Notes: generated from the letters alone by a model not told the origin. A stretch of DNA of 64,000 nt from an uncultured bacterium (GCA_963695095.1 CAVOFT010000001.1:3040001-3104000); one strand, 5' to 3'. Counted from the first letter of the stretch, positions 1-15,549 are shown. Program-made: numbers and translations.

Positions 1-2957
1 TCGCCCGCCGTATCGTCGTCCACGCTCATGGCCAGGGCGAGGTCGGCCGCGGCCGGGGTCACCGTCAGGCGCGTCGTGTCGTTGGCCGCCACCGGGTCGC
101 CCTGATCGGCGCCGACCCGCCAGGCCAGGTGCTCCAGCTCGCCCTCGGCCTGCAGCTGCACGGCCAGCTCGAGGGTGGCCCAGGCGCCGGCCGCGAGGGA
201 GCCGACCTGCCAGAGCCCGCCGAGGTCATCGAAGCTGCCCTGACTCGGCGTCGCGCTCTGCAAGGCGAGGCCGGCGGCCAGGGAGTCGCGCAGGACGACG
301 GCCGTGGCCGCATCCGGGCCCAGGTTGTCCACGCGCAGCTCGTAGTTGATCAGCGCACCCGGCAGCGGATTGGGCTCATCGACCGCGAGGGAGAGGGCGA
401 GATCGGCGGCCCGTACGCGCAGGCTGATCGCCGCGGCGTTGTCCCCGGGATCGGGGTCGGCCTGGGCGCAGTTCGCCACGCTGAGGCTGTCGACCAGGGT
501 GAGGCCGGCGCTGCCTGGAGGGACGTCGGCATCCAGGAGCAGGGTGGCGCTGGCGCCCTGGGCCAGCCGGCCCAGGATCCAGAGCCCGCGGGCGGCGTCG
601 TAGGCGCCGGCGCTGGGGGCGGCGGCGGCGAACTCCAGACCCACGGGCAGGGCCGCGCGCAGCGCGAGGCCGTCCGCGGCGCGAGGGCCCGTGTTCTGCA
701 CCGTGGCCGTGAAGCGCAGGCGCTGGCCCACGTCGGGCTCGGCGTCATCGACGCCCAGGGCGACGGCTAGGTCGGCGAGCCCCGAGGTGTACACGAGCAG
801 GCGGGGACGGCGACTCGAGTTGGCCTCCTCCTTCGTGTAGTACTTGGACTCCCTGTCCCACGAGCTGGCGAGGAAGGCGAGGCCCTGATTGGGCGAGGTG
901 CCCGCCACCCAGTCGGCGGCCAGCCCGCCGATCTCGATGCTGTACATCTGCTGGATGAGCGGCAGGAAGCTGGCGGCCGGCTCGGGATCGACGGCCTCCC
1001 CGAAGCCGTTCCAGTTGATGGTGGTTTCGTTCCAGGCCCTTGTCGCCCGATGGATGTTCACGGGCAAGCCGCTGTCGTCCTTCGACTGCACGGTCACCTG
1101 CAGCAGTGCGGACTGCACGCGGCTCGCCGGCGGAACGCTCGTCAGATCGAAGCCGAGGAGCGTCCAGCGGTCGGCGCCCGACCGGCGCCGGACCTTCATT
1201 TCAATCTCATCGCCGTGTTCGTCGTAGGGATGGTCTTCCTCGATCCAGGTGTCGCCCAGCGCGGAGAGCGTGAACAGCTCGAAGGCGGTGACGGCGATGT
1301 CGACGGCAGCGGCCGCGTCGGCCGGCGTGGGATCGGGGGGCAGCGCTTCCGTGACCGCGGCCGTCGCGGTGTAGAGCCCGCCCTCGCTGCCGGGCAGGGC
1401 CCAGACCTGGATGCGCAGCGTCGCGGTGGCGCCGGCCGCGAAGGTGGCGAGCTGCCACTTGCTCGAGGCGGGATTGTAGCTGCCGGCGCTCGCCTGATGG
1501 GCCAGGTAGCCCAGCCCGGCCGGCAGCGCGAACAGCACCTGGACGTTGGTGGCGGCGTCCGGACCGCCATTGTGCAGATCGATGGCCAGCCACAGGGAAT
1601 CGCCCTCTTCCACCACGGAGGGCAGGGCGCTGAGGGCCAGGCTCAGGTCCGCGCCGGGCAACTGCAGCAGGAGCGTGGCGCTGTCATCCGCGGGGTGGAG
1701 ATCCGGCAGGGCCGCCGCCGCAATGCTTGCCGTGACGGCGATCGTGCCGACCACCGACTCGGCACCCGCGCGCTGATCGCGCACGCTCGTCGCCTGCCCG
1801 CCGGCAGCGGAGCGATGGCCCAGGCGCCGGCGCCGGCGTCCCCGGCTACGCCTTCCACCTGACGGACTGAAGACGAGGCCCTCCGGCTCCGGCACGGCAA
1901 GCTCGACGCCCTGGGCCGTGCGCGGACCAGCGTTGGCGAGCCTCAGGGTGAGGAGGACCGTCTGCCCCGGCTGGGGCGTGAGATCATCGGCTTCGAGCGC
2001 GAGGCTCAGTTCGGCGTGGTCCGCCCCGCGCGCAGCCAGCCAGAAGAAGGCCTGGCCGTTCTGGTTGACCGCGGCGCTGGAGCCCCGCTCGATGCCCGTG
2101 GCCGTGAGGGCCTGGATGGCGTTGGCGTAGTTGGCCAGCGCATCGAAGCTCTGCGTGGCGTCGCCGGCCAGGGCGGAGGGGCGCTGGGCGCCGCTGGTGG
2201 AGCCGCCGGACTTCACCAGGACGTAGTCGGGCTGGAAGCCGCCCAGCTCCACGGCGCTGTTGTCCAGGCCATTGCCCCAGTAGCGGCCTGCGGCCAGGTG
2301 ACCCGGCGACTGGCTCCAGGCGATGTAGTGGTAGCGCGTGAAGGCGGCATTCACGTCCGATGAGGTGCCGACCTGGAAGCCGTCGGCGACGAGATCGATG
2401 ATGCGATTCGTGGTCGCCGTCTCGGTGCTGAAGGGCAGGCTGTAGCCCGCCGTCATCTCCCGGTTGCGGTGCCAGGCGCGGGTGGCGCCCTCGCCCATCA
2501 CGAGCACGAGGTCCGGATCGATGCCCAGGCCGGTGACGGTCTGGTTGGCGATGCTCCAGCCGGTGTAGCTGCCCACGCGGATCTCGTCGCCGGCGCTGAA
2601 GGCCACCCAGTAGTAGTTGCTGCCGGAGGCGTTCACATCGGCATCGGAACCGATGCTGAAGCCATCCGGATCCAGGCTGAGCAGGCGATTCGCCTGCAGG
2701 TCCCAGGCGCCGGAGAGGTGCTTGCAGTAGCCCACGGGCATGTCGGTGCTGCGGCAGACGGCGCCATCGTTGCGGTTGCCCTTGACGATGACGACGACGG
2801 GCTGGAAGCCCAGACCCGTGATCGCGCGCGCATTGCCGCCGTCGCCGACGTAGCTGCCGCTGGCGACGTAGCAGGGCGCTGCGAGGGCGCCGCCGCCCCG
2901 GCGAGCAGCGCGGCGAGGGCGAGTCAGCAGACTGAGCCGGCGCGGCCTCTGAACCAT
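1..2957 (-). CDS. Large secreted/surface protein with three N-terminal 'GSYxG..GLGFQPxxVxVK' repeats, several DUF11-like Ig domains and a DNRLRE/CBM96-like domain; 3' end lies outside the window; apparent indels
   Basis: Translated by hand from ATG 2957; absent from the ORF track because it runs off the window. Motifs: ASGSYVGDGGNARAITGLGFQPVVVIVKG, AELSLALEADDLTPQPGQTVLLTLRLANAGP (DUF11-like), DTWIEEDHPYDEHG..RWTLLGFDL..WNETTINWN (DNRLRE-like). Frame slips near the signal peptide and near 1780-1880. Confidence 0.75.
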   Translation of the reverse strand, partial: MVQRPRRLSLLTRPRRAARRGGGALAAPCYVASGSYVGDGGNARAITGLGFQPVVVIVKGNRNDGAVCRSTDMPVGYCKHLSGAWDLQANRLLSLDPDGFSIGSDADVNASGSNYYWVAFSAGDEIRVGSYTGWSIANQTVTGLGIDPDLVLVMGEGATRAWHRNREMTAGYSLPFSTETATTNRIIDLVADGFQVGTSSDVNAAFTRYHYIAWSQSPGHLAAGRYWGNGLDNSAVELGGFQPDYVLVKSGGSTSGAQRPSALAGDATQSFDALANYANAIQALTATGIERGSSAAVNQNGQAFFWLAARGADHAELSLALEADDLTPQPGQTVLLTLRLANAGPRTAQGVELAVPEPEGLVFSPSGGRRSRGRRRRRLGHRSAAGGQATSVRDQRAGAESVVGTIAVTASIAAAALPDLHPADDSATLLLQLPGADLSLALSALPSVVEEGDSLWLAIDLHNGGPDAATNVQVLFALPAGLGYLAHQASAGSYNPASSKWQLATFAAGATATLRIQVWALPGSEGGLYTATAAVTEALPPDPTPADAAAAVDIAVTAFELFTLSALGDTWIEEDHPYDEHGDEIEMKVRRRSGADRWTLLGFDLTSVPPASRVQSALLQVTVQSKDDSGLPVNIHRATRAWNETTINWNGFGEAVDPEPAASFLPLIQQMYSIEIGGLAADWVAGTSPNQGLAFLASSWDRESKYYTKEEANSSRRPRLLVYTSGLADLAVALGVDDAEPDVGQRLRFTATVQNTGPRAADGLALRAALPVGLEFAAAAPSAGAYDAARGLWILGRLAQGASATLLLDADVPPGSAGLTLVDSLSVANCAQADPDPGDNAAAISLRVRAADLALSLAVDEPNPLPGALINYELRVDNLGPDAATAVVLRDSLAAGLALQSATPSQGSFDDLGGLWQVGSLAAGAWATLELAVQLQAEGELEHLAWRVGADQGDPVAANDTTRLTVTPAAADLALAMSVDDDTAG

Positions 2958-2972
2958 GGTCTCCCCATCCCG

Positions 2973-3052
2973 GACCTTGATTGCCATCGGCGAACCCGAG
3001 CGGTCAGGGCGAGACCTTGATTGCCATCGGCGAACCCGAGCGGTCAGGGCGA
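2973..3052. repeat. Perfect tandem duplication, 2 x 40 bp (GACCTTGATTGCCATCGGCGAACCCGAGCGGTCAGGGCGA)
   Basis: Identical copies at 2973-3012 and 3013-3052 with no spacer. Confidence 0.95.
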
Positions 3053-3270
3053 AGGCGGACGCTCGCGGTCGGGCGAGCGCCCCCTGCCCGCTAGGGGAAT
3101 CGGCTCTCCGGGGCAGCTTCTTGACCGGAATCGGGGTTCAGGCGGTGCCGAGTAAGGGCGCATCCTGCCCTCGCCTGCCGCCGGGCGGGTGCCCTCGCCT
3201 GCCCCGGCGGCCGGCGGCAGGCATTTCGGCAGCAAGGTCGCGGGGGACCGGCCGCGGGCGGGGGCGAGGG

Positions 3271-3779
3271 CTAGGCGAGAGCGGCCAGGGCGGCGTCGTA
3301 GTCGGGCTCGCTCGACGGTCTCCGGCACGAGCTGGCTGTGGAGCACCTTGCCGGCGGCGTCCAGCACGACGACCGAGCGGGCGAGCAGGCCGGCCAGGGG
3401 GCCGTCGGCGATGCGGACGCCGTAGGCCCGGCCGAAGGCGCCGTCGCGGAAGTCGCGAGGCGGAGACCACGTGCGTCCAGGCCCTCGGCTGGTGCAGAAG
3501 CGCTTGTGGGCGAAGGGCAGGTCCATGCGACACGCACAGGACGGCGGTGTCGTCCAGCCCGCGCGGCCTCGGCGTTGAAGCGACGCACGCTGGCGGCGCA
3601 GACGTCGGTGTCGAGGCTGGGGAAGATGTTCAGCACCACCCGCTGGCCCTTGTAGCTCGCCCAGGGTGACGGCGCTGAGGTCGGTACTTGACGAGGGTGA
3701 AGTCGGGGGCGGCGGTGCCCACGGCGGGCAGGTCGCCCACGGTGTTGAAGGGGTTGCCCTTGAGGGTGAAGTGGGCCAT
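3271..3779 (-). CDS. tpx: Thiol peroxidase (atypical 2-Cys peroxiredoxin), frameshifted
   Basis: Stitched across frames: [90 protein letters not shown]. Confidence 0.92.
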
Positions 3780-3847
3780 GCGGCACTCCTTGGGTTCGGT
3801 GGGGGATCCCCATCCATAGCACAGGCGCGTCCGCGGAGGCCAGCCCC

Positions 3848-4940
3848 TCAGTCGTGCAGGTCGCGGTGGCAGCTCATGCAGGCGGCGCCCTGCCCGTGTT
3901 CGGTGGACTCCTCGTAGTGGCACTTCACGCAGAGCGCCCGCTGGGCGGGGTGGGCGTAGGGATTCGGGCAGGGGATAGGAGCCGGAGACCTGGCCGTCCT
4001 CGTCGAGGAAGTTCACGTTGGGATCCCAGCGGGTGGCGGCCGGCGCGCTCGTGGCGTGGGCCCGGTGGCAGCTCATGCAGGTGACGCGGCAGTCCTGGAA
4101 GGCGCCGGCCGTGCCGTCCACGGCCATGCTCGCCTGCTCGAGCGGCACCTCGGGCAGGTAGGCGGTCCAGTAGTCGCCGCCCGTGGGGTTGTCCGGGCCG
4201 GCGTAGCCGTTGTAGGACTGGCGCGCCTCGCCGTCCAGCGGCCGGTCCACGGGATGCCCGAAGCCGGCGCCGGACTCATCGTGGTAGAAGCCGTGGCAGT
4301 TGGCGCACCACTCCGACCAGCCGGCCTGGTAGGCCGTGTGGTTCGCGAGCGCCTCGGGCGGTCCGTCCAGCGCCGGCCCCGCGCCCTGCGGGGCGGGATA
4401 GTGGAAGCTGTAGCCGGCCGCGTCCTGCTCCCCCGCGCCGCGCAGCAGGCGGTAGTTGGTATTGCCGTGGGGATCGTGACAGCTCGTGCAGCCGAGCGCA
4501 TCGGCGGGGTAGTCGCCGCCCGGCGCCTGCGGGTGCTCCGGATCCTCGAAGAGGCCCAGGTCGGCCGAGACCAGGCTGTGACCCGCCCGATGGCCGCCGA
4601 TCGGGTAGAGGAGCCCGTCCGGAGCGTCATTCAGGTTGGGTGCGAACAGGAAGATGAAATTGCCCGGCCCGCGCTCGGGCGGCGGGTAGGCCGGATCGCC
4701 GGCCAGCACCGCCCCGAGGGCGGTGGCGTGGCAGGACAGGCACAGGTCCGTGGAGGAGGCGAAGCGCAGCAGGCCGCTGACGCCCCCGGGCACGCCCGGA
4801 TCGGCGGGCAGGCCGTCCTCGCTACCGTGCAGGATGTGGCAGGCGCCACAGGCCGCCACGCCGCCCTCGTGGAAGGCGAGGGCGGGCTGGGCGCCGAGCA
4901 GCAGGAGGGCGAGCAGGCAGGCGGTCGACAGGATGCGCAC
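3848..4940 (-). CDS. OmcS-like multiheme c-type cytochrome, 7 CxxCH motifs, Sec signal peptide; one apparent indel near 3967
   Basis: GTG start; signal [38 protein letters not shown]. Heme motifs: CGACH, CLSCH, CTSCH, CANCH, CMSCH and, after removing one base, QRALCVKCH and CMSCH, ending RDLHD*. Confidence 0.9.
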
Positions 4941-5220
4941 GGGCGGACTCCCCGGATGGGATCGATGCGGACGGGCGCCGCGGGAGGACGCGAAGCAAGC
5001 TTCCGGCCAGTATACGCGATGGCGGGGAATCGACGCCAGCGGCCGATCGCCGCATGCCTCCGCTTGCAGGCCGCTCCCCGGAGGGAATAGAATTGCTGCG
5101 CACATCGACCCGGCATCCGGGGCCCCACCCAGCGGGCGGGGCCCCACGCAGGTTGGTCTTGGTTTTCGCCTGACATCCAGCATGGCCACAGTCCATCACC
5201 TGTTCGAGGGGAGATCACCG

Positions 5221-8200
5221 ATGAAGAAGTTCGCGATCGGTCTGCTCGTGCTCCTCTGGTTGCTGCCTGCAGCGGCCATGGGCGCGGATCCACTCAACGC
5301 CTTCGATGCCGACGCCGCGCGCACGCTCGCGCCGCGCCCCTTCGCTCCCGCCCAGTCCGGATTCGCTACCAAGCCGGACCCGGCGGCCCATGCTGCCCTG
5401 CGCGCAGGATCGCCTGCTCGTGCAGTTCACCACCGACGCCATGGAACGGGCGCAGCTCGACCTCTCCTTCAGGTGCGGCCACGCCGAACGCCGCCACCGG
5501 CCTGCCCTCCGTCGACGCGCTGACCGCGTCCGCTGGCGTGCGCTCGGTGGAGCGTCCCTACGCCCAACCGCGCGACGAGGCCCGGGCCATCGCCCTGGGC
5601 GTGGACCGCTGGTACCTCCTGCGCTTCGACACCGGGCGCGACCTGGCCGACGTGGCCGCCTCCCTGAGCGCGTTGCCCGACGTCGCGGCCGTCTCGCTGG
5701 ACTGGGTCGCCTTCCCGGCGGCGGTGCCCACCGATCCGCTGTACGCCGATCACTGGGGACACAACAACACCGCCCAGCTGCCCGGCTAGACTGGGGCGGC
5801 ACCTATGACCACACGCTGGCCCAACACGGTGGGCACCCCCGGCTTCGACGCCAACGCCCAGGCCGCGTGGGACGGCAGCCAGGGCTACGGCACCGCCGAG
5901 CGTCGTCATCGCCATCCTCGACAGCGGCGTCGACATCGACCACCCCGACCTGCGCCTGGTCGCCGGCTACGACTTCGGCGACAACGACAGCAACCCCGAC
6001 GACAACTCAGCGGCAGCGCGGGCCACGGCACCTGCTGTGCCGGTGTGGCGGCGTTCGGTGCAACAACAGCCTCGGCGCCGCCGGCATCGCCGCCGGCTGC
6101 AGCATCATGCCCTGCAAGGTGGCCAACAGCGCCGGTTCGATGTACTTCAGCTCCATCCAGAACGCCCTCTACTGGGCGGCCGACAACGGCGCCGACATCA
6201 TCAGCATGAGCCTCGGCGCCGCGATCAGCAGCGACCCGGCCACCGACACGGCGATCAACTACGCCTACAACGCCGGCTGCGTGATCCTGGCCGCGACGGG
6301 CAACGAGAACACGAGCACCATCAGCTACCCGGCCATCCACGCCAACGTGATCGGCGTCGGCGCCGCCTCGCCCTGCGGCGACCGCAAGCGGCTCGAGCAG
6401 CAGCGGCCGAGTGCAACCCCGGCGTCAGCACCGACCCCAACGGCTACACCTGCGACGGCGAGCGCTGGTGGGGCTCCAACTACGGCGTCACACCGCCGGA
6501 CGCGGCCGGCGCCGTGGACGTCATCGCCCCGACCATCCTGCCGACGACGGACATCGGCGGCAGCGGCGGCTATCGCCGCGGCGACTACGAGCCGTTCTTC
6601 AACGGCACGTCCTGCGCCACGCCGTACGCGGCCGGTGTCTGCGCGCTGATCAAGTCGAAGAATCCCGACCTGGACGCCGGCGCAGATCCGCAACCAGCTC
6701 GTCAACACGGCCAGCGACATCGTCAACGTCGAGTCGGGCACCGGCTGGGACCGCTACAGCGGCTACGGCATGGTCGACGCCGCAGCGGCGGTGGGCGGCG
6801 GCGGCGGCCCGTGCCGCCGACGGCGGCGTTCGTCGGCTCGCCGACGAGCGGCAACGCCCCGCTGCCGGTCAGCTTCACCGACCAGTCGAGCGGCGCGCCC
6901 ACGTCGCTGGAGCTGGAACTTCGGCGACGGCGGCACGCTCGACGGCCCAGAACCCCGGCCACACCTACACCAACGCCGGCACCTACACGGTGACCCTGAC
7001 CGCGAGCAACGCCGACGGCTCCGACGCCGAGGTCAAGACCAACTACATCACGGTGACCGAGCCGGCCGGCACCTACGCCAACCTGCCCTACGCCACGGGC
7101 TTCGAGACCGGCGGGCTGGACCAGTACTGGACGACGGCTCGACCACCGACAGGGCCGCATCCAGATCACCACGGCCAACACGCCCGCACGGCGGCACGCT
7201 ACCACCTGCGATGGACGACAGCTCGAACGGCGGCACCTACAGCCCAGAACGAGGCGTGGCTGCACCTGAACCTGGCCGGGCTGGCGCAGGTGGACCTGAG
7301 CTTCTGGTGGAAGGATTTCGGCGACGAGACCCACACCCAGGACGGCGTCTTCTTCTCCGACAACGGCGGCAGCAGCTTCGTCAAGGTCCTCGACCTCAAC
7401 GGGCGCGAGCTACACCAACAACGTCTGGAACAACTTCACCCTCGACGTCGACGCGCTCGGCGCGGCCGACGGGCTCAGCCTGAACAGCACGTTCGTGGTC
7501 AAGTTCCAGCAGTACGACAACTACCCGATCACCACCGACGGCTTCGCCTTCGACGACATCAGCGTCACGGCAGCGCCGCGCCGCCGCCGGTGGCGGCGTT
7601 CAGCGGCACCCCACCTCCGGCGTACGCCCCGCTGGCGGTGCAGTTCACCGACGCGTCGACGGACGCGCCGACGTCCTGGAGCTGGACCTTCGGCGACGGC
7701 GGCACGTCGTACCGCGCAGAATCCGTCCACACCTACACGACGGCCGGCACCTACACGGTCAGCCTGACGGCGACCAACGCCGTCCGGTTCGGACGTCGAG
7801 ACCAAGACGGCTACATCACGGTGAGCGAGCCCGACGGGCGGCACTGGACGACCATCACCTACGACGACTTCGAGGGCGGCTTCGGCAGCTACACCGACGG
7901 CGGCGGCGACTGCGCGCGCTACACCGGCGGCACCTACGCCCACCAGGGCAGCGCGCGCGCCGATATCCAGGACAACAGCGGCATGGCGTCGTCGTTCTAC
8001 CACACGGCCAGCTACAACGTGACCGGCTACACCGAGCTCGAGGTCGACTTCTGGTTTTATGCCGTACAGCATGGACAACTCGAGCGAGGACTTCTGGGTC
8101 CAGTACTACGACGGCACCACCTGGCGGACGGTGGCGACGTTCGCCCGCGGGATCGACTTCGACAACAACACCTTCTACTGGCACCGTGCCGATTCCGCGG

Positions 8201-8614
8201 GCAGTACAACTTCCCGACCAACGCCAAGCTGCGCTTCATGTGCGACGCTAGCGGCAACCGGACGACGTGTACATCGACGAGATCGAGTTCCGCGGCCTGA
8301 CCGCGGGCGGCGCGGGAGCGGGGCCCGGGTCACGCAGACGCGGCGATCGCTGCCGGCCCAGTTCGCCCTGGACCAGAACCACCCGAATCCGTTCAACCCG
8401 GAGACGACGATCACGTTCGCACTGCCGGAGACGAGCGTGCGGCTGCAGGTGTTCGACGTCCCGGGCCGGTCGTGGCGACCCTGGTGGACGAGGTGCGCGG
8501 CGCGGTCTGCACCAGCTGCACTGGGACGCCCGCGGCGAGGCCTCGGGCGTCTACTTCTACCGGATCAGCGCCGGCGAGCTGCAGGAGACGCGCCGGATGA
8601 TCCTTCTCAAATGA
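5221..8614 (+). CDS. Secreted S8 subtilisin-like serine protease with two PKD domains and a C-terminal FlgD-Ig/T9SS-CTD-like domain, multiply frameshifted
   Basis: Signal MKKFAIGLLVLLWLLPAAAMG; catalytic triad IAILDSGVD, GHGTCCAG, FNGTSCATP; PKD motifs WxFGDG..HTYTxAGTYTV twice; tail QNHPNPFNPETTI..ASGVYFYRI..RRMILLK*. Confidence 0.88.
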
Positions 8615-8680
8615 GCCCCCTCGCCTCCACCCGCGCGCGACAAACGTGCTCGGGCTGGAGGCGACTCGCTCACCGGGCAA

Positions 8681-8717
8681 AGAAGGACCCGGCACGGATC
8701 TCGCGCCGGGTTCTTTA
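8681..8717 (+). terminator. Probable intrinsic terminator between convergent genes
   Basis: Imperfect GACCCGGCAC..GCGCCGGGTTC hairpin, A-rich on the left and T-rich on the right. Confidence 0.5.
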
Positions 8718-8781
8718 TGGGGTGTGTTCGATTGGCGCTCGCCTCGCAGCTCTGTCGCGCGCGGGTGGAGGCGGGGGAAGT

Positions 8782-10686
8782 TCATTTGAGGAGCGTGGCG
8801 CGGCCCACGAGCACCCGCCCGGCGGCGGTGAGGCGGTCAGGTGATCCCTGATGCCAGCCCCTCCGGACGCCAGCTCACGCGGTGCTCGCCGGCGGGCAGC
8901 GCACCGTCGACAAGGCCGGCGACCTCGCGTCCGGCCAGGTCGTACACGGTCAGCCGCGCCTGCCGGCCGCCGCCAGGCTGAAGGCGATCTCGGTGGCCGG
9001 GTTGAAGGGATTGGGGTGGTTCTGCGCCAGCCGTGCCGAGACGGCAGCTCCGGCGCGGCGGTCGGATCCGCGAACTCGCCGATGGCGATGCTCCGCGGCA
9101 GGTAGCTGCCGCCGTCCACCTCGCAGTGGTAGCCGCCGTAGTCCGCCGCAGACACCCGCCAGCGTGAGCTGGGCGGCCGTCTCGCCGGCCAGCGGCTGGC
9201 CGTCCTTGAACCACTGGTAGCTGCCGCCGTTCAGTCCGGATTCGAGCACGAACTCGGGTGCGGCGATGCCGGGGCCGGCGCCGATCACCTGATCGGCATT
9301 GCCGGCCACCACCACGCGCACGTTGTCGATGGCGCCGTTGTTCTGCAGGTCGCCCAGGATGCGCAGATCGATGGGCACCTGCGCGCTGTCCCGGATGAGC
9401 CCGTCGTTGACCAGCAGATCGCTCGCGCTCACGACGGCCGTGCCCCAGCCGGTCGCCCAGCCCTGCAGCGTGTCCGCGATGGTCGTGCCGCCGGTGAAGG
9501 CCGCCTCGTTGCTGACCTGCACGCGCCCGCGGAGCTTCGCCTGGTCGATGCTGACGCCGATCAGCGCGCTCATGCTGTGCATGTCGATCGTGTTGCCATT
9601 CGCGTAGACGGTGCCGCCGCCAGCGAACCCCAGCCGAGCAGGGTGAGATCAGCGCCGGGCGCCAGCGTCAGGTCGCCTTCGGACAGACCCAGACCGTCGC
9701 GCAGGAGCAGGGGCGTGTCGGCGACGATGCTGCCGCCCTGGAACTCGGGCAGGAACATGCTCACGTCGAAGACGCCGGCGGGTCCCATGCTCAGGTGATG
9801 CACGCTGGCGCCATCGAACTGCAGCGAGCTGCAGCTGATCTCGCCGTTGTTCACGAGGTCGCCGGCCATGTTGATGCTGAGGCCATAACTCGTATTCGTG
9901 ATGACGCCCTCGTTGATCAGCCCGCCCGCCACGGTCATGTGCCCGCCCCCGGTCAGCGACGAGGGCAAGAGGCCGTCCTTGATGGTGGCTCCGCCCGTGA
10001 AGTGGGCGGTGCCGGCGATCTCCGCCTCGCCGAAGACCACGGCCGCGTCGAGGGTGGCGTTTTGCAGGTAGGTCCAGGACACCACGTAGAGCGGGTTGCC
10101 GTTCATGCGCAACTCGCCGCTGATCCGCCCGGCGTCCACGGTAAGCGGGCAGTTGGCGCCGAGCAGCAAGCGCCCACCGGTGACGACGAGGTCCCCGGAC
10201 TTGACCCAGGGCGTCTCGACGATCAGGTCGCCCGCGGCGCCCGTCGCGAAGACGAGATTGCTGGCGAAGACGGCGGCGGCATCCTGGCTGAGGCTGCGAT
10301 CGGCGCTGCCGGTGATGCGGGTCAGGTTGTTGAGCCAGTTGCCGTCGTTGGTGAGATCGCCGCCCAGCTCGAGCGTGAAGAAATAGGAGCCGTTCTCGAT
10401 GAGGCCATCGTTCGTGACCGCCCCCGCCACGCTCAGGGTCGCCGGTCCGCTGCTGGCGGCGTGCAGCTGCCCGGCCGGCTCGACGAGCAGGCTGGCGCAG
10501 CTCTGGGTACCGGTCACGTGCACCGGCCCGGCAATGATGACCTCATCCCCGGGTCCGGGGACCACGCCCCCGACCCAGGTGCTCCCCACGGCCCAGAAGC
10601 CGCCCGCCGCGGTGGAGCTGATCAGGCTGGCCAGGGCCGGCCCCGGAGAAAGGCTAACGCATGCAAGTATAGACGATACGATTCAT
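8782..10686 (-). CDS. Secreted beta-strand-rich (G8-like N-terminus/beta-helix) protein with Ig domain and FlgD-Ig/T9SS-CTD-like C-terminus, frameshifted
   Basis: LISSTAAGGFW..STWVGGVVPGPGDEVIIAG; Ig segment SYQWFKDGQPLAGETAAQLTL; LAQNHPNPFNPATEIAF; ends TLLK* at 8782. Joins ORFs 9570-10589, 8950-9582 and 8837-9214. Confidence 0.75.
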
Positions 10687-10906
10687 GGGGACCTCCCGGC
10701 CATCTCTCCGCCTAGCGGGGATTTCAGTCACGGGAAAATCTACCATATCTGCGAATGTCTCCGATATCGAATTCCCACTTCAACAAGCCCCCTCTTGTCA
10801 GCCCACCCCGATGTCGGTTACCGATGGGCAGCCCAAGGAGCGCCTTGATCCCCTACCTCGCCATCGCCCTGGCGCTCGGCGCTGGACTCATCTGAGGGAG
10901 GCCGGC

Positions 10907-12103
10907 ATGCGCGACCGCGGCATTCTCTACACCACCGCCTTTCTGCGCGCCCTGAGCACGGGCTTCATCGGCGTGACCCTGGGGCTCTACCTCGCGCGCA
11001 TGGGACACGACGCGGCGGCAATCGGCCGCATCGTCTCGGCCGGCCTCGCCGGCGCCGCGCTGGCCGCCATCCTCGCCACCGCCTTCGCGGATCGCCTGGG
11101 TCGGCGGCGCTTCCTGGCGGGCACGGCCGCCATCGGCGCGCTCGGCACGGTGGCCTTCGCGCTCAGCGACAGTCCCCTGGCGCTCGCCCTCACGGCCTTC
11201 GTGGCCATGCTCAACGGCATGGGCCGCGACCGCGGCGCGGCGCTCATCCTCGAGCAGGCGGCCCTGCCCGCCACGACCACGGACGCCGGCCGCACGCGCA
11301 CCATCGCCGTCTACACGATGCTGCAGGACATCGGCCACGGGCTGGGCGCCCTGCTCGCCGGACTGCCCTCGGTGCTGCGTTCCGGGGACGCCACCGGCGC
11401 CGGCGGCTACCGCGTCGCGCTGTTCCTCTGCGCCGGACTCGGCCTGGCAATGGCGCTGCTCTACCTGCGCCTGCGCGCCGGCATCGAGCCGGGCGCGGGC
11501 GCCCGCCGCCAGCGCCTGTCGCCGCGCAGCCGCGGCCTGCTCCTGCGCCTCTCGGCGCTCTTCGGCATCGACAGCCTGGCCGGCGGCTTCCTGACCACCA
11601 CCCTGCTCTCCTACTTCTTCTTCGCGCGCTTCGCCGCGCCGGAGATGGCGATCGGCCTGCTCTTCTTCTTCTCGCGCCTGATGAACGCGGGTTCGCACCT
11701 GGCCGCCGCCTGGTTGGCCGGCCGCATCGGCCTCGTCAACACGATGGTCTTCACGCACATCCCCTCCAGCCTGCTCCTGGTCACCGTCGCCTTCGCGCCC
11801 AGCTTCCCGGTGGCGGCTGCGCTCTTCCTGCTGCGCGAGGGGCTCGTCGAGATGGACGTCCCCACCCGCAGTTCCTACGTGCTCGCCGTGGTCCAGCCGG
11901 AGGAGCGGACGGTCGCCTCGGGCATCACCAATCTCGTCCGCCTGGGCGGCTGGGCCGTGGCGCCCGCCCTGGCCGGCAGCCTGATGGACCCCGGGTCGCT
12001 CTACCTGCCGCTCGTCATCGGCGCCGGCATGAAGATCGCCTACGACCTGCTGCTCTGGCGCGCATTTCGCGCGATCAAGCCACCGGAAGAGTCGCAGACG
12101 TAA
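10907..12103 (+). CDS. MFS transporter
   Basis: About 12 hydrophobic segments; MFS motif A-like ADRLGRRR and AGRIGL; GGGAGG before ATG 10907. Confidence 0.9.
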   Translation: MRDRGILYTTAFLRALSTGFIGVTLGLYLARMGHDAAAIGRIVSAGLAGAALAAILATAFADRLGRRRFLAGTAAIGALGTVAFALSDSPLALALTAFVAMLNGMGRDRGAALILEQAALPATTTDAGRTRTIAVYTMLQDIGHGLGALLAGLPSVLRSGDATGAGGYRVALFLCAGLGLAMALLYLRLRAGIEPGAGARRQRLSPRSRGLLLRLSALFGIDSLAGGFLTTTLLSYFFFARFAAPEMAIGLLFFFSRLMNAGSHLAAAWLAGRIGLVNTMVFTHIPSSLLLVTVAFAPSFPVAAALFLLREGLVEMDVPTRSSYVLAVVQPEERTVASGITNLVRLGGWAVAPALAGSLMDPGSLYLPLVIGAGMKIAYDLLLWRAFRAIKPPEESQT

Positions 12104-12189
12104 CTATTTAGCGTCACCTTTGCGATTCCGATAAAGTCCTGGCGGCAGCACCCGATGAATTGTTGAGCGATTCACCGGGAAAGGTCGCC

Positions 12190-14396
12190 ATGCAAACTGA
12201 GCTGGAGCTGAGGGAAGCGCTGGCGCGTGACATCGACAGCCTCGCCGATCAGCTCTCCCAGGCCGCCGACGGCAACTTCGACTTCCGTGTACATACGGAC
12301 TCCGCCGATGCGCGCGTGCAGAAGCTCGGGACGCTGGTCAACATCGTGGTCGAGAGCGCGCGCCGGGCCATCGCCGAGCTCAAGCAGGAGCATCGCAGGC
12401 TGCAGGAAAGCGAGCAGCGGCACCGCGACTACATCGCGAACACGCCCCTCGGCGTGTTCGTCACCGATGAGCGGGGCCGCTACGTCCAGGTCAACCCGGC
12501 GGCCTGCCGCATGACCGGCTACGCGGAGCACGAGCTGCTGGCCATGAGGATCCCCGATCTCCTGGGCCGAGAGGGCATCGCCGCCGGGATGCGCTACTCC
12601 AGGCTGTCGCCGAGGCAGGCGAGGCGCATGACGAGTTCCGTTTCCGCACCAAGAGCGGCGAGCTGCGCTGGTGGTCCGTCTCCGCCGTGAAGCTGTCGGA
12701 GTCCCGTTTCATCGGCTTCTGCAGCGACATCAGCGAGCGCAAGCGCGCCGAGGAGGCGCTACGGGAATCGCGCGAAGTGCTGCAGGGTGTTCTCGATGCC
12801 ATCCCGGTGCGGGTCTTCTGGAAAGACAGAGAACCTGGTCTACCTCGGCTGCAATGCGGCCTTCGCGGGGGATGCGGGGGTCGCGGGGCCCGAGGCGGTC
12901 ATCGGCAAGGACGACTTCGCGATGGGCTGGCGGGACCAGGCGGAGCTTTATCGAGCCGACGATCGCGCCGTGATCGAAGGCGGGCAAGCCAGACTCCTCA
13001 TCGAGGAGCCGCAGACGACGCCCGACGGCGGGCAGATCCACCTGCTGACGAGCAAGCTCCCCCTCCGCGCCGCCGACGGCGCCATCGTCGGCGTGCTCGG
13101 CACCTACTACGACATCACCCCCCTCCGCCGCGCGGAGCAGGACTACCGCACGCTGTTCCGCGAGATGCTGGACGGCTTCGCCTTGCACGAGATCATCTGC
13201 GACGCCGCCGGGCGGCCGGTGGATTACCGCTTCCTCGCCGCCAATCCGGCCTTCGAGCGCATGACCGGCCTCGAGGCGGCGGCGATCCTGGGGCGGACGG
13301 TCCTCGAGGTCCTGCCGGACCTCGACCGCTCCTGGATCGACACCTACGGCAAGGTGGCGCTGAGCGGCGAGCCGGCTCACTTCGAGGACGAGGTCGCGTC
13401 CATGGGCAAGCGCTTCGCGGTGTCGGCCTTCCGGCCCGCGCCGGGCCAGTTCGCCTGCTTCATCGCCGACGTCACCGCCCAGCGGCTGGCGGAGGCGGAG
13501 CAGCGCCGCCTCGAGGAGCAGCTCGGCCAGTCGCAGAAGCTGCAGGCGGTCGGCCAGCTCGCCGCCGGCATCGCCCATGAGATCAACACGCCCGCGCAGT
13601 TCGTGGGCGACAGCATCCAGTTCCTCGGCGACAGCATCGCGCCGATCGAGTCCCTCCTCGCGAAGTCCGGCGGCGGCTGGCCGACCTGCCGGCCACTGCC
13701 GAGCACGAGGAGCTGCGCGCGCAGATCGCGGCGGTCGAGGCCGCCGTCGACATCAACTTCGTGCTCGAGAACTTCCCCGGCGCCGTGGCCGACGCCAAGG
13801 ACGGCGTCTCGCGGATCTCCACCATCGTGCGCGCGATGAAGGAATTCGCGCATCCGGACCAGAACGAGAAGGCCGCGGCAGATCTCAATCGCGCCCTCGA
13901 ATCCACGCTGACCATCGCGCGCAGCGAGTACAAGTACGTGGCCGAGCTGGTCACCGAATTCGGCGAGATGCCGCCGGTGATCTGCCACCTCGGCGACCTG
14001 AACCAGGTCTTCCTCAACCTGCTGGTGAACGCCGCCCATGCGATCGGCGATGTCGTCGGCACGAGCGGCGCGCTGGGGACCATCCGCGTGCGCACGGCCC
14101 GCGAGGGCGACTGCGCGCGCATCGACATCGAAGACACGGGTGGCGGCATTCCCGAGGCCGTCCGCGATCGCGTCTTCGAGCCCTTCTTCACGACCAAGGC
14201 GGTCGGCAAGGGCACCGGACAGGGCCTGGCCATCGCCCATGCGATCGTCGTCGGGAAGCACGGCGGCACGCTGCGCTTCACTTCCGAACTCGGCAAGGGC
14301 ACCTGCTTCACGATTCGCCTGCCGCTCGTCCCCGTCGTCCCCGCGGCGACGCCGCTCCCCTCCCACCAGTCACCGACTGGAGAAGGATCGACATGA
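12190..14396 (+). CDS. Cytoplasmic multi-PAS sensor histidine kinase (NtrB-like), frameshifted
   Basis: PAS motifs VNPAACRMTGY, VFWKD..GCNAAFA, ANPAFERMTG; H-box GQLAAGIAHEINTP; N/G boxes QVFLNLLVNAAHA, DTGGGIP, FEPFFTTK, GTGQGL. Indels near 12600, 12830 and 13670. Confidence 0.9.
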
Positions 14397-14992
14397 ACCA
14401 GACTTCCGTGACCGCGGACGCCCAGACGCCGCCGGCAAGCGACACCCTCAGCACGGTGCTCTTCGTGGACGACGAGCCGAAGATCCTCACCGGATTGCGC
14501 GTGGCGCTGCGCAAGTTTCCCTTCCGGATCCTCACGGCGAATTCGGCCGCCGAGGCCCTGGCCGCGCTCGCTGAGCAGCATGTGGACGTGGTGGTCTCCG
14601 ACGAGCAGATGCCGCTGATGTCGGGCTCGCAACTGCTGAGCGTGGTGCGCAAGCAGCATCCGGAGACGATTCGGATCATCCTCACGGGCCAGGCGAGCCT
14701 CGAAGCCGCAGTGCGCGCCATCAACGAGGGAGAGGTCTATCGCTTCCTGGCCAAGCCCTGCAATCCGATGGATCTCGCGAACACCATTCTCGGCGGTCTG
14801 CAGCTGCGCGATCTCGCCAGGCAGAGCTCGCGCCTGCTGTCCCGGACGCGCCAGCAGCAGGCCGTCCTGCGCAAGCTCGAGAGCCAGCATCCCGGCATCA
14901 GCGAGGTCAAGGTGGACGCGGGCGGCGCCATCCAGCTCGAGGCCGGCGATCTGCAGAGCCTGATCCGGGAACTCGAGCAGGAAAACCGCTAG
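14393..14992 (+). CDS. Response regulator (receiver domain plus C-terminal helical extension)
   Basis: VLFVDDE, VVVSDEQMPLMSG, ILTG, RFLAKP; ATGA overlap with the kinase stop. Confidence 0.9.
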   Translation: MNQTSVTADAQTPPASDTLSTVLFVDDEPKILTGLRVALRKFPFRILTANSAAEALAALAEQHVDVVVSDEQMPLMSGSQLLSVVRKQHPETIRIILTGQASLEAAVRAINEGEVYRFLAKPCNPMDLANTILGGLQLRDLARQSSRLLSRTRQQQAVLRKLESQHPGISEVKVDAGGAIQLEAGDLQSLIRELEQENR

Positions 14993-15105
14993 CGCCGGGT
15001 TGCCGGGCGGCGGCGTTCCCCCTCGGCGCTGCCAGCCCCCCAACCCCTGTCCTTGACAGCCGGCAGCCTGCCATGCCCACCTGCGGCAACTCAGGAGGTG
15101 CCGCC

Positions 15106-15549
15106 ATGGCCGAGACTGGCCTGTTCGCGAAGTGGATCCGCTCGGGTCCCGCCCTGCATAGCCTGCTGCGCATCGTGGCCGCGCTCATGTTCCTGCAGGC
15201 CGGCACGATGAAGCTCTTCGCCTGGCCGATGGGCATGCCGCCGGACGGCAGCACCGCGAAGCTCCTCACGCAGATCGGCATCGGCGGCCTGCTCGAGGTG
15301 GGCGGCGGCCTGCTCATGTTCGTGGGCCTCTTCACGCGGCCCGTCGCCTTCCTGCTCGCCGGCGAGATGGCCGTGGCCTACTTCCAGTTCCACCAGCCGC
15401 AAGGCCTCTGGCCCGTGCAGAACGGCGGCGTGGCGGCCGCGCTCTACTGCTTCGTCTGGCTCTACTTCTCCGCTGCCGGGGCAGGACCCTGGAGCCTCGA
15501 CGCGCGCCGGAGCGCCCCTCGCCGATATCGGAGCGATAAGGCTGATTAG
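15106..15549 (+). CDS. DoxX family membrane protein
   Basis: LLRIVAALMFLQAGTMKLF..GLFTRPVAFLLAGEMAVAYF..GAGPWSLD; AGGAGG RBS. Confidence 0.9.
   Translation: MAETGLFAKWIRSGPALHSLLRIVAALMFLQAGTMKLFAWPMGMPPDGSTAKLLTQIGIGGLLEVGGGLLMFVGLFTRPVAFLLAGEMAVAYFQFHQPQGLWPVQNGGVAAALYCFVWLYFSAAGAGPWSLDARRSAPRRYRSDKAD

Follow-up and report, generated by a model that had tools for sequence, protein, structure and literature searches.

A predicted seven-heme branch of the OmcS cytochrome family in an uncultured FCB-type bacterium

A gene on the minus strand of a 64,000-nucleotide stretch of DNA from an uncultured bacterium (GCA_963695095.1, CAVOFT010000001.1:3040001–3104000; hereafter the window) is predicted, from its sequence and modelled fold, to encode an exported protein of the OmcS fold that carries seven sites for heme attachment and has been conserved by selection. 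The seventh site sits in a short C-terminal tail that OmcS lacks and that is shared by a large set of homologs. This seven-heme branch is apparently undescribed, with no printed name that we could find, yet widespread. A single extra base breaks the reading frame ahead of the last two sites; taken jointly, the identity of the protein, its seventh heme and the origin of the break in an assembly artefact are, in our judgement, probable.

Gene layout and the frame break

The features of the gene and of its flanks are as follows (window coordinates).

4940–3848, minus strand: cytochrome gene, coding for a signal peptide followed by an OmcS-like protein that has seven CxxCH
4875–4940, minus strand: GTG start and 22-residue Sec-type signal peptide ending A-L-A (by translation; homologs are laid out alike)
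3966–4874, minus strand: mature residues 1–303 with heme sites 1–5, first frame (by translation)
4850–4836, 4742–4728, 4490–4476, 4307–4293 and 4079–4065, minus strand: CxxCH sites 1–5, first frame
4871–4869 and 4829–4827, minus strand: codons of His2 and His16
3965, minus strand: a single additional base, read as G on the gene strand, that falls between the codons of Pro303 and Asn304 and shifts the frame
3848–3964, minus strand: mature residues 304–341 and stop, +1 frame (by translation)
3931–3917, 3898–3896, 3880–3866 and 3850–3848, minus strand: heme site 6, His326 codon, heme site 7 and TGA stop, +1 frame
3271–3779, minus strand: downstream neighbour, a Tpx/Redoxin-type peroxiredoxin (by domain scan), with eight insertions relative to the 166-aa copy on contig C2
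5182–8614, plus strand: divergent upstream neighbour, an S8 subtilase carrying both PKD domains and a type IX sorting tail, lying in several frames here

A Shine–Dalgarno-like stretch, GGGGAG, lies 7 bases 5′ of the GTG at 4940, and the mature N-terminus begins F-H-E-G-G. The Pro303 codon (3968–3966) is the last before the extra base; without frame correction, the first frame continues as a low-complexity stretch into the next gene. The whole mature protein, as read from the C2 copy described below, has 341 residues and seven CxxCH, and was the query for our homolog searches. A first-pass annotation of this DNA had listed a signal peptide ending in A-L-A, a series of sequence blocks and a seventh CxxCH at 3880–3866; all are present in the translation of 4940–3848, the seventh site in the +1 frame before the stop. 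It had also placed a single-base indel near 3967: the indel is there, and alignment with the C2 copy and a short-read contig fix its exact position at 3965.

The extra base at 3965 is very probably an artefact of the assembly, and the population would then encode the whole protein. The genome assembly consists of two contigs, C1 and a small one, C2 (28.9 kb), and C2:12682–28947 is a variant copy of C1:3039191–3055513 (window 1–15513). The two cytochrome genes, at C1:3043848–3044940 and C2:23270–24361, are identical at 1055 of 1092 aligned bases (96.6%), with two single-base gaps: the extra base at window 3965, missing from the C2 copy, and an insertion of C2's own at the signal-peptide junction, missing from the window copy. 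Both assembled copies are broken as they stand, and since each lacks the other's insertion, neither break is ancestral. The two copies differ in 34 codons, 25 synonymously and 9 non-synonymously (the latter conservative); five changes fall 3′ of the break, four of them silent in the +1 frame, and the tail is therefore under selection in that frame. A 70% identical copy in a same-genus genome (G002) reads through the junction in one frame. Read placement left most of the gene uncovered, and the only contig spanning the break, a 272-base contig of a relative from a short-read aquatic metagenome (depth 2, single contig), has no base at 3965. Whether the indel is real had been left to the reads by the first-pass annotation; with the base missing from the C2 copy, from G002 and from the short-read contig, it probably is not. 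A word search of sequencing runs returned shares of 0.05–0.11 in four DNA runs of two studies, and listed no RNA runs with words of the gene.

It is improbable that the window copy is instead a real pseudogene in a decaying duplicate region, with only the C2 copy, or neither, functional. Against C2, the C1 sequence does show numerous indels (64 of one base each over the 16.3 kb compared) and is rich in them from window 3000 to 9000, where two genes that are whole in C2 are broken: tpx, by its eight single-base insertions (166 aa in C2), and the S8 protease gene (1144 aa in C2). However, the broken C1 tpx pieces each still read as conserved Tpx, whatever the frame, which argues for consensus errors rather than decay, and the cytochrome itself has one indel in 1.1 kb and mostly silent changes. 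Moreover, rpoB (C1:3153811–3157572), which is essential and far off, is broken three times in the same assembly: it lies in four pieces over three frames where relatives encode single proteins of ~1264 residues, pointing to frequent single-base indel errors in the assembly. A programmed +1 ribosomal frameshift would account for the open frames on both sides of the break and for the conserved downstream frame, but was rejected as vanishingly improbable, as the junction lies in a single frame in every relative examined, the 96.6% identical C2 copy among them.

The identity between C1 and C2 is mosaic, at 99.2% for a DUF11 block, 83% for tpx, 96.6% for the cytochrome and 84% for the S8 protease, so that the cytochrome is far better conserved than the genes on either side of it. 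The C2 copy may be a strain haplotype or a second locus.

OmcS family membership and the seventh-heme clade

Judged by sequence and by predicted fold, the window protein is a member of the OmcS family. Among 177,635 distinct PDB sequences, phmmer found OmcS (6EF8) as the only strong match of the first-frame product (E 5.8e-26; alignment spanning OmcS 1–351), and HMMER pairs the mature N-terminal 16 residues with OmcS residues 1–16. A profile of 116 family members extends this similarity to the full length of OmcS (E 2.1e-64 over residues 1–407, at profile positions 25–344 of 362), and no solved relative other than OmcS was strong in that PDB profile search. Pfam and NCBIfam returned no match to an OmcS-specific model and only generic multiheme ones (Paired_CXXCH_1, with decaheme and NrfB models below threshold), and the ESM Atlas gave automatic 'Doubled CXXCH' cluster names, one of these clusters being commonest in Krumholzibacteriota (a lead only). 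The AF2 model (pLDDT 90.9, pTM 0.88) is least confident in its first ~30 residues. With it, Foldseek retrieved 6ef8_A alone (E 2.9e-15, TM 0.72/0.61), and VIA-align superposed model residues 1–323 on OmcS chain residues 1–407 with a Z of 28.1 (rmsd 3.7, 310 residues); the next rows were far below (MtrA, Z 5.7; OmcE, Z 3.6). The first-pass annotation had called the protein an OmcS homolog with the same ordered blocks and with His2 and His16 at their OmcS mature positions. These claims hold: phmmer, profile and predicted fold all single out OmcS among solved structures, the two sequence alignments recover the blocks, the pairing with OmcS 1–16 places both histidines, and the monomer that was to be compared with OmcS is predicted to have the same fold.

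The protein has the six ordered CxxCH of the family, which are 98–100% conserved in 186 sequences, together with six non-motif histidines (His2, 16, 99, 136, 207 and 273) that are 92–100% conserved in those with and without the tail alike. Six is the number needed for six bis-His hemes, and we infer that these residues are the distal ligands of the six core hemes. Where it departs from OmcS is in not having exactly six hemes and an end soon after site 6: it has seven CxxCH, and 18 model residues lie beyond the end of OmcS. OmcS ends three residues past its sixth site (...QRALCNKCHAKD at 407), a C-terminus that corresponds to model residue 323; the last 18 residues of the model, with the seventh site, are the add-on, and this tail has no OmcS counterpart in the profile alignment either, which stops at position 344 of 362. 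The boundaries given by VIA-align and by the profile thus agree with the earlier statement that OmcS stops soon after its sixth motif and the protein here continues.

The tail follows a consensus of C-x-K-C-H, then H-G after six to eight residues and CxxCH after another three to four. Sites 6 and 7 lie twelve residues apart, in two short helices of the model (316–323 and 332–336), and the successive ten-residue blocks of the tail have AF2 confidences of 96, 91 and 80. All 85 tailed sequences have Cys332, Cys335 and His336, and 80 (94%) have His326, whereas His340 is found in 6%; of the 'two spare His' previously noted in the tail, therefore, the first is a conserved feature and the second is not. 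Two further histidines are also conserved in the tailed clade, His179 (84/85, or 99%, versus 51/101 untailed) and His198 (80/85, or 94%, versus 60/101 untailed), so sequence alone does not single out the axial ligand of heme 7. The last 28 residues, comprising site 6, the conserved histidine and site 7, resemble the end of the Pfam family Cytochrome_C7 (PF14522; positions 39–67 of 67). Membership of that family was rejected, the tail alone scoring 17.9 bits (E 0.0027) against a gathering cut-off of 24.8 bits.

A word-indexed search found 1247 homologous proteins at E ≤ 1e-5; CxxCH counts in the best 120 of these were seven in 78, six in 38, five in 2 and eight in 2. When 50%-identity representatives were searched exhaustively, 526 passed E ≤ 0.001 (33 passed E ≤ 1e-30), with six sites counted in 80 and seven in 4 of the 150 matches listed. 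We built a FastTree phylogeny of 186 rows, consisting of 184 of the 268 hits P0005–P0272 and two proteins of this genome; the 84 hits left out had fewer than 330 residues, no M/V start or fewer than six sites. The tree carries local support values only and a midpoint root, and gives no direction of change. In it, the query falls within starred sets made up entirely of tailed proteins, one of 44 rows (support 99) and one of 78 (support 97), and the genome's own six-heme paralog lies in the other half, among 75 rows of which 74 are untailed; the tail label requires five changes on the tree. The window protein thus combines H-G-x(3-4)-CxxCH after site 6 with a place in the tailed clade, and the sequences indicate that the tail marks a whole clade, not a single variant. 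The description of a heptaheme OmcS-family variant was accordingly right as to the family and the add-on seventh CxxCH, but not as a one-off, the tail being conserved across a large clade.

Two other variations in heme sites were seen among the homologs. In five clade members (P0052, P0073, P0074, P0077 and P0079), C-G-C-H replaces the first CxxCH of all other members and may be an unusual CXCH heme site. Two others, P0012 and P0076, carry an eighth CxxCH past the seventh, and from these sequences heme sites seem to have been added stepwise at the C-terminus in the OmcS family.

Host organism and gene neighbourhood

Over its C-terminal 672 residues, RpoB shares 95% identity with a record named Candidatus Latescibacteria, and 80% and 71% with records named Candidatus Krumholzibacteria; there are no Desulfuromonadia names among the best 120 RpoB matches listed. 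By RpoB, the host would be an uncultured Krumholzibacteria/Latescibacteria-type bacterium, not a member of the Desulfuromonadia. The genome has a GC content of 70.5%, and the neighbouring S8 protease carries a Por_Secre_tail (type IX) sorting domain; RpoB matches and Por_Secre_tail domains agree with the FCB-type, non-Geobacter candidate phylum proposed before. The finding of an OmcS homolog outside Geobacter stands as to the host but not as a novelty: the available text of PMC10954620 places OmcS homologs in diverse bacteria, and that of PMC7914226 puts OmcS in Krumholzibacteria already in print. No description of the seven-heme tail, or of a seven-heme branch of OmcS in FCB phyla, was found in the literature searched.

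Source names of the seven-heme homologs include Eisenbacteria, KSB1 and Calditrichaeota (FCB-type candidate phyla), and record titles for the whole family include Zixibacteria, Krumholzibacteria, Gemmatimonadales and Thermoanaerobaculia, although several of these binning labels look doubtful. Within the class, 8 of 30 other genomes have a family match at E ≤ 1e-20, and the family is therefore patchy; a metagenome scan yielded no relative closer than 55%. Genes for cytochrome c maturation and paralogs, for which a search of the genome had been proposed, are both present: ResB and CcsA (System II) at C1:1733622–1736815, and a six-heme OmcS-like paralog described below. About 23–24 further open frames with at least three CxxCH occur in the genome, among them frame pairs with 24+18 and 20+16 CxxCH, each of which is probably one very large cytochrome.

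Past tpx, window 1–2987 encodes a DUF11 protein that exceeds 1266 aa and combines six DUF11 repeats with CARDB and CBM96. Like the S8 protein on the other flank, it is a large secreted protein of FCB type.

Assembly-type neighbours (NHL-repeat, PPIase, large cytochromes, barrel proteins) do not accompany the window gene. At nine other seven-heme loci, no adjacent open reading frame has any CxxCH, and the neighbours scanned include NHL or PPIase domains at none of the nine, nor at the window or C2. Four of the nine (L005, L007, L008 and L071), all Calditrichota-type loci with the match at 6001–7011 or 7001–7996, have in common the order hemA, hemB, hemL, histidine kinase, OmpR-type regulator, cytochrome, ccsA and resB; L007 was scanned in full, and in the other three the regulator, CcsA and ResB were scanned and the upstream frames matched in size only. 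This order links the seven-heme cytochrome to the biogenesis of heme and of cytochrome c. For the window's own lineage, synteny could be compared in one same-genus genome, G002, where the copy lies among Suf-type and anti-sigma-type frames (identified by eye); thus even close relatives do not have common neighbours.

Untailed loci have a different setting. Of five such loci, four have NHL-repeat neighbours (L012, L013, L039 and L041) and four have cytochromes with 26–42 CxxCH (L013, L017, L039 and L041). The six-heme paralog of this genome (C1:1498594–1499697; 367 aa, 40–42% identical to the seven-heme protein) stands at the end of a cluster (L062, C1:1492503–1499697) of a PPIase, the cytochrome with 24+18 CxxCH over two frames and NHL frames, followed by the hexaheme gene. 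NHL and PPIase genes also belong to the block beside the OmcS-like gene GSU2501 of Geobacter. Judged by its neighbours, the six-heme paralog makes the stronger nanowire candidate of this genome. The accessible part of PMC12977616 links the eight-gene block beside GSU2501 to nanowire maturation.

Mode of action and comparison with known systems

We propose that the protein would be a c-type cytochrome with the OmcS fold, exported through Sec and ~341 residues long when mature, whose hemes would be attached through the genome's System II (ResB/CcsA). The conserved add-on, H-G-x4-CxxCH after site 6, would bind a seventh heme beside heme 6, because the two sites are only 12 residues apart in a confident part of the model, and the chain of tightly packed hemes would be one station longer at the C-terminal end. 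The protein would carry electrons outside the cytoplasm of a bacterium that has many multiheme cytochromes. In OmcS, heme 6 presumably meets heme 1 of the next subunit; the add-on therefore falls where the subunit contact would be, and could remodel or block it. We lean, with a little better than even confidence, to a free-standing electron carrier or surface cytochrome, because no OmcS-type assembly cluster lies nearby and because the heme count is odd. A complex prediction with two copies and four hemes scored 0.00 and speaks neither for nor against an oligomer.

Less probable, and held here only tentatively, is an OmcS-like conductive homopolymer with seven hemes per subunit, in which His16 would ligate a heme of the next subunit, as we take it to do in OmcS, and heme 7 would lie in the chain or on a side branch. 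Several observations agree with such a polymer: the OmcS fold extends over the entire OmcS chain, His2 and His16 are at OmcS positions and kept in 78 and 83 of the 85 tailed sequences, the universally conserved non-motif histidines number exactly six, matching the six core hemes, the monomer model gives its N-terminal arm low confidence, and the host is rich in multiheme cytochromes. The conservation of His16 and the low-confidence arm fit a polymer as well as a monomer. In OmcS, one heme is ligated by a histidine of the adjacent subunit, according to the available part of PMC9473688. Against a polymer, the NHL, PPIase and multiheme neighbours that accompany the six-heme paralog are found at none of the nine seven-heme loci, the window or C2. 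Furthermore, the wires described in the accessible text of PMC13712944 have four, six or eight hemes per subunit in alternating parallel and T-shaped pairs, an alternation that an odd number of hemes would be unable to keep across identical subunits, and among the Geobacter paralogs OmcS alone is known to make a wire, as far as the available text of PMC12977616 goes. That the tailed clade as a whole represents a new kind of wire subunit, polymerising in the OmcS fold and bearing an odd seventh heme that breaks the alternation or forms an exposed side branch, is doubtful.

Highly improbable is a role as cap, base or adaptor on a filament of the six-heme paralog, docking through the common interface while heme 7, at the opposite side, acts as entry or exit. 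Both genes occur in one genome, the two proteins have a common fold family and N-terminal F-H...CxxCHxxH block, and the tail is at the end that OmcS lacks. Yet the proteins are only 40–42% identical, their genes are 1.5 Mb apart, and among the 8 of 30 class relatives with a match, some show a match of tailed length alone and others a shorter match alone.

For electron transport over micrometre distances in biology, OmcS serves as the model, and which of its many homologs form wires is treated as an open question in the available text of PMC12977616. The seven-heme branch, large and conserved in uncultured aquatic and sediment phyla, provides a clean natural experiment: it keeps the fold, adds a heme where the chain ends and lacks an assembly cluster close by. 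Should the protein polymerise, the rules drawn from four-, six- and eight-heme wires would change, and FCB-group bacteria would, if an odd-heme wire proved true, own a 'leaky' OmcS-type nanowire for lateral electron hand-off. Should it act as the free-standing carrier that we favour, the OmcS fold would also serve carriers of that kind, a warning against equating metagenome 'OmcS' hits (as in FeGenie-type surveys) with nanowires or iron reduction.

The closest known system is OmcS of Geobacter sulfurreducens (PDB 6EF8 / 6NEF), a hexaheme filament-forming cytochrome whose fold is common to the window protein. Both have six CxxCH in the same order, conserved blocks, a Sec signal peptide and the N-terminus F-H-x-G-G-V-A-x-C-x-x-C-H-x-x-H. 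They differ in sequence (~26–33% identity), in the core loops, which are ~66 residues shorter in the window protein, and in its 18 to 22 extra C-terminal residues with a seventh CxxCH and a conserved histidine. The window protein also has an FCB-type host and no adjoining assembly-type cluster, and polymerisation has been seen for OmcS, whereas here the likeness is one of predicted fold.

Other members of the family compare as follows. In the portion of PMC12977616 available, OmcT, OmcJ and GSU2501 ('OmcS-like') of Geobacter are hexaheme proteins of unknown function and wire-forming ability, in which last respect the window protein is like them; all three have six hemes rather than seven, and GSU2501 is tied to an eight-gene block (GSU2500–2493) that the window gene lacks. 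The FeGenie OmcS hits in Krumholzibacteria MAGs (Dalcin Martins et al. 2021, PMC7914226) come from the same phylum-level group and have the same family call; the accessible text does not give whether they are of the six- or the seven-heme kind. Outside the family, the di-heme arrangement of cytochromes c7/c3 (PF14522, PF14537) is a partial parallel, in that the tail resembles the C-terminal end of c7, at a score below the cut-off. The fold of OmcZ, the octaheme wire of Geobacter, is unrelated (no OmcZ match in the Foldseek listing), but its one branched, solvent-exposed heme, as described in the available parts of PMC13712944 and PMC9473688, provides an analogy for the extra heme of the seven-heme branch.
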